Positions 58,005-59,132 of a stretch of DNA of 64,000 nucleotides are shown piece after piece; position 1 is the stretch's first letter; the number at the start of each line of letters is the position of its first letter. A model generated the notes under the pieces. That model worked only from the letters and a program-made list of their open reading frames with translations, was not told the origin of the DNA and searched no databases. The stretch is from Escherichia coli. Its GTDB lineage: Bacteria; Pseudomonadota; Gammaproteobacteria; Enterobacterales; Enterobacteriaceae. The position numbers and the translations under genes are program-made. The stretch lies in assembly GCF_046105845.1 (NCBI RefSeq), contig NZ_CP151004.1. One strand, given 5' to 3'.

Positions 58005-59132
58005 ATGAAAGTTAAAGTACTGTCCCTCCTGGTCCCAGCTCTGCTGGTAGCAGGCGCAGCAAACGCTGCTGAAGTTTACAACAAAGACGGCAACAAATTA
58101 GATCTGTACGGTAAAGTAGACGGCCTGCACTATTTCTCTGACGACAAGTCTGTAGATGGCGACCAGACCTACATGCGTCTTGGCTTCAAAGGTGAAACTC
58201 AGGTTACTGACCAGCTGACCGGTTACGGCCAGTGGGAATATCAGATCCAGGGCAACAGCGCTGAAAACGAAAACAACTCCTGGACCCGTGTGGCATTTGC
58301 AGGTCTGAAATTCCAGGATGTAGGTTCTTTCGACTACGGTCGTAACTACGGCGTTGTTTACGACGTAACTTCCTGGACCGACGTACTGCCAGAATTCGGT
58401 GGCGACACTTACGGTTCTGACAACTTCATGCAGCAGCGTGGTAACGGCTTCGCGACCTACCGTAACACTGACTTCTTCGGTCTGGTTGACGGCCTGAACT
58501 TTGCTGTTCAGTACCAGGGTAAAAACGGTAGCGTAGATGGCGAAGGCATGACCAACAACGGTCGTGGTGCTCTGCGTCAGAACGGCGACGGCGTTGGCGG
58601 TTCTATCACTTATGATTACGAAGGCTTCGGTATCGGTGCTGCAGTGTCCAGCTCCAAACGTACTGACGCTCAGAATGGTACTTACAAAGTTGATAATGTA
58701 ACTCGCAACTACATCGGTACTGGCGACCGTGCTGAAACCTACACTGGTGGTCTGAAATACGACGCTAACAACATCTACCTGGCTGCTCAGTACACCCAGA
58801 CCTACAACGCAACTCGCGTAGGTTCCCTGGGTTGGGCGAACAAAGCACAGAACTTCGAAGCTGTTGCTCAGTACCAGTTCGACTTCGGTCTGCGTCCGTC
58901 CCTGGCTTACCTGCAGTCTAAAGGTAAAAACCTGGGTGTCATCAATGGTCGTAACTACGACGACGAAGATATCCTGAAATATGTTGATGTTGGTGCTACT
59001 TACTACTTCAACAAAAACATGTCCACCTATGTTGACTACAAAATCAACCTGCTGGACGACAACCAGTTCACTCGTGACGCTGGCATCAACACTGATAACA
59101 TCGTAGCTCTGGGTCTGGTTTACCAGTTCTAA
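58005..59132 (+). CDS. ompC: Outer-membrane porin C
   Basis: 375 aa; signal peptide [21 protein letters not shown]; porin beta-barrel ending LVYQF. Confidence 0.95.

Follow-up and report, generated by a model that had tools for sequence, protein, structure and literature searches.

Does the ompC gene in this stretch of Escherichia coli DNA, whose product is longer than that of strain K-12 and differs from it in several segments, represent a variant that resists phages or antibodies, or is it an ordinary allele of a polymorphic gene? The window analysed here is the whole stretch, 64,000 nucleotides in length. A first-pass annotation had recognised in it an OmpC with divergent segments where external loops are expected, and had judged that it looked like an antigenic or phage-resistance variant. 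We consider it highly probable that this is the chromosomal ompC carrying one natural allele of a mosaic, polymorphic gene, in which the outward surface of the porin differs while the barrel and loop L3 are as in K-12.

The list of open reading frames gives an intact ompC frame with an ATG start, encoding 375 aa. The gene, its signal peptide and the features around it are as follows.

58005..59132, plus strand: ompC coding sequence, 375 aa with a 21-aa signal peptide, leaving a mature protein of 354 aa.
58005..58067, plus strand: signal peptide (aa 1-21), identical to that of K-12; mature chains in the PDB begin at A22.
54594..57266, strand opposite to ompC: rcsD, the upstream neighbour.
57578..57671, minus strand: micF sRNA, Rfam RF00033, 116.8 bits (gathering score 79).
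59151..59170, plus strand: intrinsic terminator-like hairpin with a T-run after it, 19 nt past the ompC stop codon.

The gene order rcsD, micF, ompC, apbE/ftp, ada, alkB is that of K-12, although the locus is inverted here relative to the K-12 record, and the window is collinear with K-12 at about 97.4% identity. The micF gene lies upstream of ompC and divergent from it, at the place it occupies in K-12, and its region includes a terminator-like hairpin at 57606-57584. Few positions in the intergenic region upstream of ompC differ from K-12; a promoter scan returned 3 consensus matches, with 3.4 expected from shuffled sequence, and thus no excess. The encoded protein scores 758.2 bits with the NCBIfam model for porin OmpC (NF007841, cut-off 484) and matches the Gram-negative porin family Porin_1 (Pfam PF00267, E = 1.5e-140), and both its Sec signal peptide and its C-terminal aromatic β-signal (…VYQF) are identical to those of K-12. 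The gene is ompC at its usual chromosomal locus. It is exceedingly improbable that it is instead a paralogue or an acquired porin (OmpN, NmpC, a phage-borne porin or one from another genus): its 8 additional residues relative to K-12 and the similar length of Citrobacter OmpC (376 aa) would fit such an origin, but it occupies the exact ompC locus adjoining micF, its framework DNA shares 98-99% identity with E. coli ompC, the Citrobacter proteins are only 85-89% identical, and the models for OmpF (473 bits, cut-off 583) and PhoE (449 bits, cut-off 599) score under their cut-offs, so that we rejected this origin on synteny and identity.

Several further observations concern the annotation of the window. 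A frame of 364 aa with a TTG start (58098-59192, minus strand) runs antisense through almost all of ompC; it lies opposite a highly codon-biased gene, is absent from the K-12 and Ec1120 annotations, and is treated here as a mechanical open reading frame. A segment of about 3.8 kb that separates glpQ from inaA (17440-21276) lacks a K-12 counterpart save for remnants matching the K-12 yfaH pseudogene. This stretch carries a LysR-family regulator (19163..20041, minus strand), an MFS transporter (20193..21383, plus strand) and a 367-aa frame with no Pfam match (17627..18733, minus strand). The yfaS gene (36451-41070, plus strand), a pseudogene in the K-12 annotation, is here an uninterrupted frame of 1539 aa, and a match to the REP-derived nucleoid-associated RNA naRNA4 lies between rcsC and rcsB (Rfam, 53841-53917, plus strand, 73.8 bits).

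How does the protein differ from that of K-12? We used ompC of K-12 MG1655 (1104 nt, 367 aa) as the reference and write the window residue first in each substitution. The reference length bears out the earlier comparison of 375 with 367 aa. Aligned in this way, the two proteins are 96% identical and are separated by 13 substitutions and three indels, namely the loss of 4 aa from L4 (GFTS of K-12), the gain of 8 aa in L5 (GTYKVDNV) and the gain of 4 aa in L7 (GVIN). The boundaries of strands and loops in the following list were taken from an AF2 model, and those of L7 from S1 Fig of Beck et al.

58140..58169, plus strand: loop L1 (aa 46-55; L1 in S1 Fig of Beck et al.), between model strands 30-45 and 56-66, with D47N and S49D.
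58350..58436, plus strand: loop L3 (aa 116-144), which folds inward to constrict the pore and shows no difference from K-12 in the alignment.
58518..58589, plus strand: loop L4 (aa 172-195), between model strands 164-171 and 196-205.
58638..58646, plus strand: conservative substitutions A212G and V214I in strand β10 (model strand 208-218; β10 in S1 Fig of Beck et al.).
58659..58727, plus strand: loop L5 (aa 219-241), with the insertion GTYKVDNV at 58677-58700 and R234A, N235A and T239N.
58929..58967, plus strand: loop L7 (aa 309-321), with the insertion GVIN at 58935-58946 (aa 311-314) and N317G.

L4 carries five substitutions (S176N, V177P, D178S, M182V and G188D), and the deleted GFTS of K-12 falls between E180 and G181. 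All of the indels and 11 of the 13 substitutions are thus in the extracellular loops L1, L4, L5 and L7, while L2, L6, L8, L3, the signal peptide and every periplasmic turn are identical to K-12. Surface loops make up 108 of the 354 mature residues, and the concentration of 11 of 13 substitutions within them (hypergeometric P = 6e-5) is not a product of chance. The same distribution is seen among 29 E. coli-level OmpC alleles, in which mean column entropy is 0.31-0.70 in L5, L7, L2, L4 and L1 and 0.05 in the strands. The K-12 protein (P06996; PDB 2J1N) thus comes from the same gene at the same locus and has the signal peptide, the barrel and the L3 eyelet in common with that of the window; its L4, however, contains GFTS, its L5 and L7 are both short, and its L1 carries N47/D49. 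The four peptides quoted in the first-pass annotation are all present (SDDKSVDGD at aa 45-53 and the others at aa 173-192, 220-241 and 308-326), and its placement of the differences in external loops holds for L1, L4, L5 and L7 but missed the two changes in β10, which are the only differences that the pairwise alignment, mapped onto structure, places in strands or periplasmic turns.

The AF2 model was built on a 76-sequence alignment that included distant porins (representative search) and reached a pLDDT of 91.2 and a pTM of 0.87. Its strand pattern fits a 16-stranded β-barrel in which L3 (116-144) bears a short helix; residues 6-16 of the signal peptide appear as a low-confidence helix. Foldseek comparison with the solved OmpC structures 2XE1, 2J1N and 9WCB gave TM scores of 0.95-0.98 and rmsd values of 1.0-1.7 Å, in keeping with the K-12-like barrel that had been recognised from the sequence. 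The best PDB match of the protein is 9WCB, the OmpC of O157:H7. In the model, L5 contains hairpin strands at 226-229 and 232-235 (pLDDT about 76-81), and the long L5 is thus predicted to form a short β-hairpin; the strands flanking the tip of L7 (296-313 and 316-334) are likewise extended as a hairpin. OmpC porins form trimeric, cation-selective diffusion channels under EnvZ/OmpR control. With L3 as in K-12 and a barrel altered only by the two conservative changes in β10, no effect on the pore is expected, and general diffusion through this porin should match that of K-12.

This conservation also bears on whether antibiotics have selected the allele as a permeability variant, comparable to the clinical OmpC series (PDB 2XE1-2XG6) or to the L3 insertions of OmpK36, which we regard as very improbable. 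Porin changes can alter drug uptake, and the L5 substitution A226D in K-12 OmpC shifted β-lactam MICs two-fold (PMC11351675), so that a small effect of L5 is possible. Nevertheless, L3 and the barrel are those of K-12 save for the conservative A212G and V214I, the isolates from which the allele has been recovered come from food, animal, sewage and human sources with no obvious clinical bias, and GyrA in the same window (31448-34075, plus strand) carries Ser83 and Asp87 and with them a wild-type quinolone-resistance-determining region. We rejected antibiotic permeability on the unchanged L3 and on a barrel altered only at the two conservative β10 positions.

If the differences are confined to the surface, are they unusual within the species? 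Among 2,707 E. coli OmpC proteins, Beck et al. (2016, PMC5056734) counted upwards of 220 distinct sequences, with variation mainly in L4 (33 forms), L5 (30) and L7 (13) that is modular and occurs in many combinations. In their S2 Table, the L4 of the window is exactly allele c7 and its L7 exactly allele e. The L5 is not among the 30 L5 alleles listed there; it is a long L5 of class b that differs by one residue from b3 (T to K) and by two from b1. An identical full-length protein has nevertheless been deposited since that catalogue, as RefSeq WP_072841508.1 (UniRef A0A826JWF0_ECOLX), and is present on 286 contigs.

We estimated the frequency of each form among 5,426 complete E. coli genomes. 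The whole ompC gene was found at 99% identity or more in 9 of them, and the exact 85-nt L5 region in 10, with 5 more at one mismatch. L5 forms like b1 occur in about 125 and other class-b forms in 416, so that all long class-b types together amount to about 556 (~10%). The short c-type L4, by comparison, is carried by about 2,889 of these genomes and an identical 91-nt L7 region by about 1,050 (roughly a fifth), while SDDKSVD in L1 is shared by 8 of the 12 alleles in the alignment of Beck et al. The L1, L4 and L7 of the window are thus widespread forms and it is K-12 that has the less typical allele, and the long L5 is the sole minority type among the divergent loops. K-12 OmpC is not an ancestral baseline, and the ompC of the window is an ordinary natural surface-loop allele; both the exact allele and the phenomenon it exemplifies are already known.

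Three groups of OmpC proteins lie closest to that of the window. Strains Ec1120, PK5074, WEC, LR-64-1 and others encode WP_072841508.1 at the same locus, with a protein that is 100% identical and a gene in which 2 of 1128 nt differ, both synonymously; their flanking genes, by contrast, differ by 1-3%, and for this reason these strains and that of the window do not constitute one lineage. The OmpC of KTE205, A42H and FDAARGOS_536 (WP_001539019.1; c7/b1/e) is also a 375-aa precursor, 99% identical to that of the window, and shares its L1, L4 (c7), L7 (e) and a long class-b L5, but differs from it by K228V and R234H in L5 and at 11 synonymous sites. The third is the OmpC of O157:H7 (EDL933/EC869; PDB 9WCB), which has the framework, L1 and L7 (GVING) of the window and an L4 of the same short type, but carries S178/E188 in L4 and a short L5 (…DDQNSPLYIGNGD) without the 8-aa insertion.

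Through which route could such an allele have arisen? We propose that it would have been assembled and spread through homologous recombination, with loop-encoding segments exchanged inside the E. coli gene pool, and that point mutation from a K-12-like ancestor would not have been the route. Loop forms are found in other assortments: isolate SC418 has the L1, L4 and L5 of the window together with TIGT in L7, strain 510016 combines L5 b3 with other forms of L1, L2 and L4, and ATCC 8739 has another class-b L5 alongside VINS in L7. Codons 175-239 hold an excess of the synonymous differences from K-12 (11 in 57 codons versus 8 in 306 elsewhere; Fisher P = 1.6e-5), and the segment from L4 through β9 and β10 to L5 thus has a history of its own. 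Around the gene, one further interval stands out.

57849..59392, plus strand: candidate recombination tract of ~1.5 kb around ompC, with 2 differences from Ec1120.

Outside this tract, Ec1120 differs from the window by about 1% upstream and about 3% downstream. In total, 122 differences separate the two in about 7.1 kb, and only 2 of these are inside ompC (binomial P = 3e-7). Strong constraint on codon usage, rather than recent transfer, could account for part of this low divergence; constraint is not the whole explanation, however, since FDAARGOS_536 differs from the window at 15 positions inside the same gene. The reassortment of loops, the clustering of synonymous differences and the shared tract point to recombination over point mutation from a K-12-like gene, and a mosaic, recombination-driven evolution of ompC has been described previously (bioRxiv 10.1101/2021.09.21.461324).

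The strain itself belongs to an uncommon E. coli lineage. Over positions 52000-64000 (12 kb), the best complete E. coli genome is at most 98.3% identical to the window, and the exact Ada protein was found on 3 contigs only. An origin in Shigella or another species, considered on account of this low identity, was rejected, since the exact OmpC, ApbE and Ada proteins all occur under names assigned to E. coli and the window is collinear with K-12. Downstream of ompC, the segment with apbE, ada and alkB (59255-62000) is unusually divergent, differing by about 3% from strains that share the ompC allele, and reaching 20-30 differences per 250 nt within ada.

What would the altered surface mean for the ligands of the porin? 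In the mechanism we favour, the β-barrel, the trimer-forming framework and the L3 constriction would be kept as in K-12, whereas the outer surface, altered by a short L4, an L5 that is 8 residues longer, an L7 hairpin that is 4 residues longer and two substitutions in L1, would confer a different receptor and antigen specificity. Such a change is expected because phage tail-fibre proteins, CdiA and antibodies bind these OmpC loops, and the view of the loops as phage and antibody receptor sites from which the first-pass annotation started is well founded in published work on related alleles.

Phage T4 uses the OmpC of K-12 and not that of O157, and a Phe in the L4 of K-12 is reported as needed for its adsorption (both unpublished data reported in PMC5221442). 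The K-12-type L4 with the Phe of GFTS is missing from the OmpC of the window, as it is from that of O157, and T4 probably cannot use this allele. Phage PP01 presents a different case. Its gp38 needs GVIN in L7 and binds the cleft between L5 and L7, and grafting GVIN into K-12 OmpC suffices for adsorption (PMC12892980). The GVIN motif is present in the L7 of the window, but the adjacent L5 exceeds that of O157 OmpC by 8 residues and could block binding of the PP01 type despite GVIN. A solved phage complex is available in PDB 9WCB, in which the central tail fibre gpJ of phage A8 is bound to O157 OmpC.

Contact-dependent inhibition (CDI) also reads these loops. Recognition of OmpC by CdiA-EC536 is set by L4/L5, and the nearest allele tested, that of A42H (c7/b1/e), gave resistance to CDI from E. 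coli 536 (PMC5056734); by analogy, CdiA from strain 536 probably does not recognise the allele of the window. As for antibodies, the monoclonal 2G12 binds LGVING in L7 together with a peptide in L6 (PMC8426304), and both peptides are present in the protein studied here. LGVING was published as an O157:H7-specific epitope (PMC8426304), yet it is encoded in the window at 58932-58949. It is not specific to O157, because the 91-nt L7 region that encodes it is found in about a fifth of the complete genomes, as given above. We infer these specificities by transfer from alleles that differ from that of the window at least in L5.

Alternatively, the loop differences may reflect neutral drift in weakly constrained loops, with no effect on recognition by phages, CDI systems or antibodies. 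Loops do tolerate substitutions and indels, and PP01 infection withstood several single substitutions in L5 and L7 (PMC12892980). We nonetheless find this quite unlikely: in related alleles, gain or loss of GVIN switches PP01 adsorption and exchange of L4/L5 switches recognition by CdiA-EC536, and the loop forms are discrete types that occur in many combinations and not a continuum. Of the natural mosaic allele that we prefer, a different receptor and antigen specificity is thus to be expected, with some ligands lost and others gained, and not the behaviour of a resistance mutant. The earlier label of an antigenic or phage-resistance variant is plausible as a functional reading, but the direction implied by resistance is misleading given that K-12 is not ancestral.

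An L5 with Lys228 is missing from the 2016 catalogue and is found in no more than about 10 of the 5,426 complete genomes, which leads us to a more speculative suggestion. This form could be a recent escape variant of class b that alters recognition by a specific phage or CdiA, perhaps moving between unrelated lineages on the ~1.5-kb tract; we hold this to be a minor possibility.

The allele described here has little importance past routine annotation. Its combination of L4 c7, a class-b L5 and L7 e can be read directly against published catalogues, and the OmpC loop type of a strain helps to predict its phage host range, its susceptibility to CDI and its antibody cross-reactivity.
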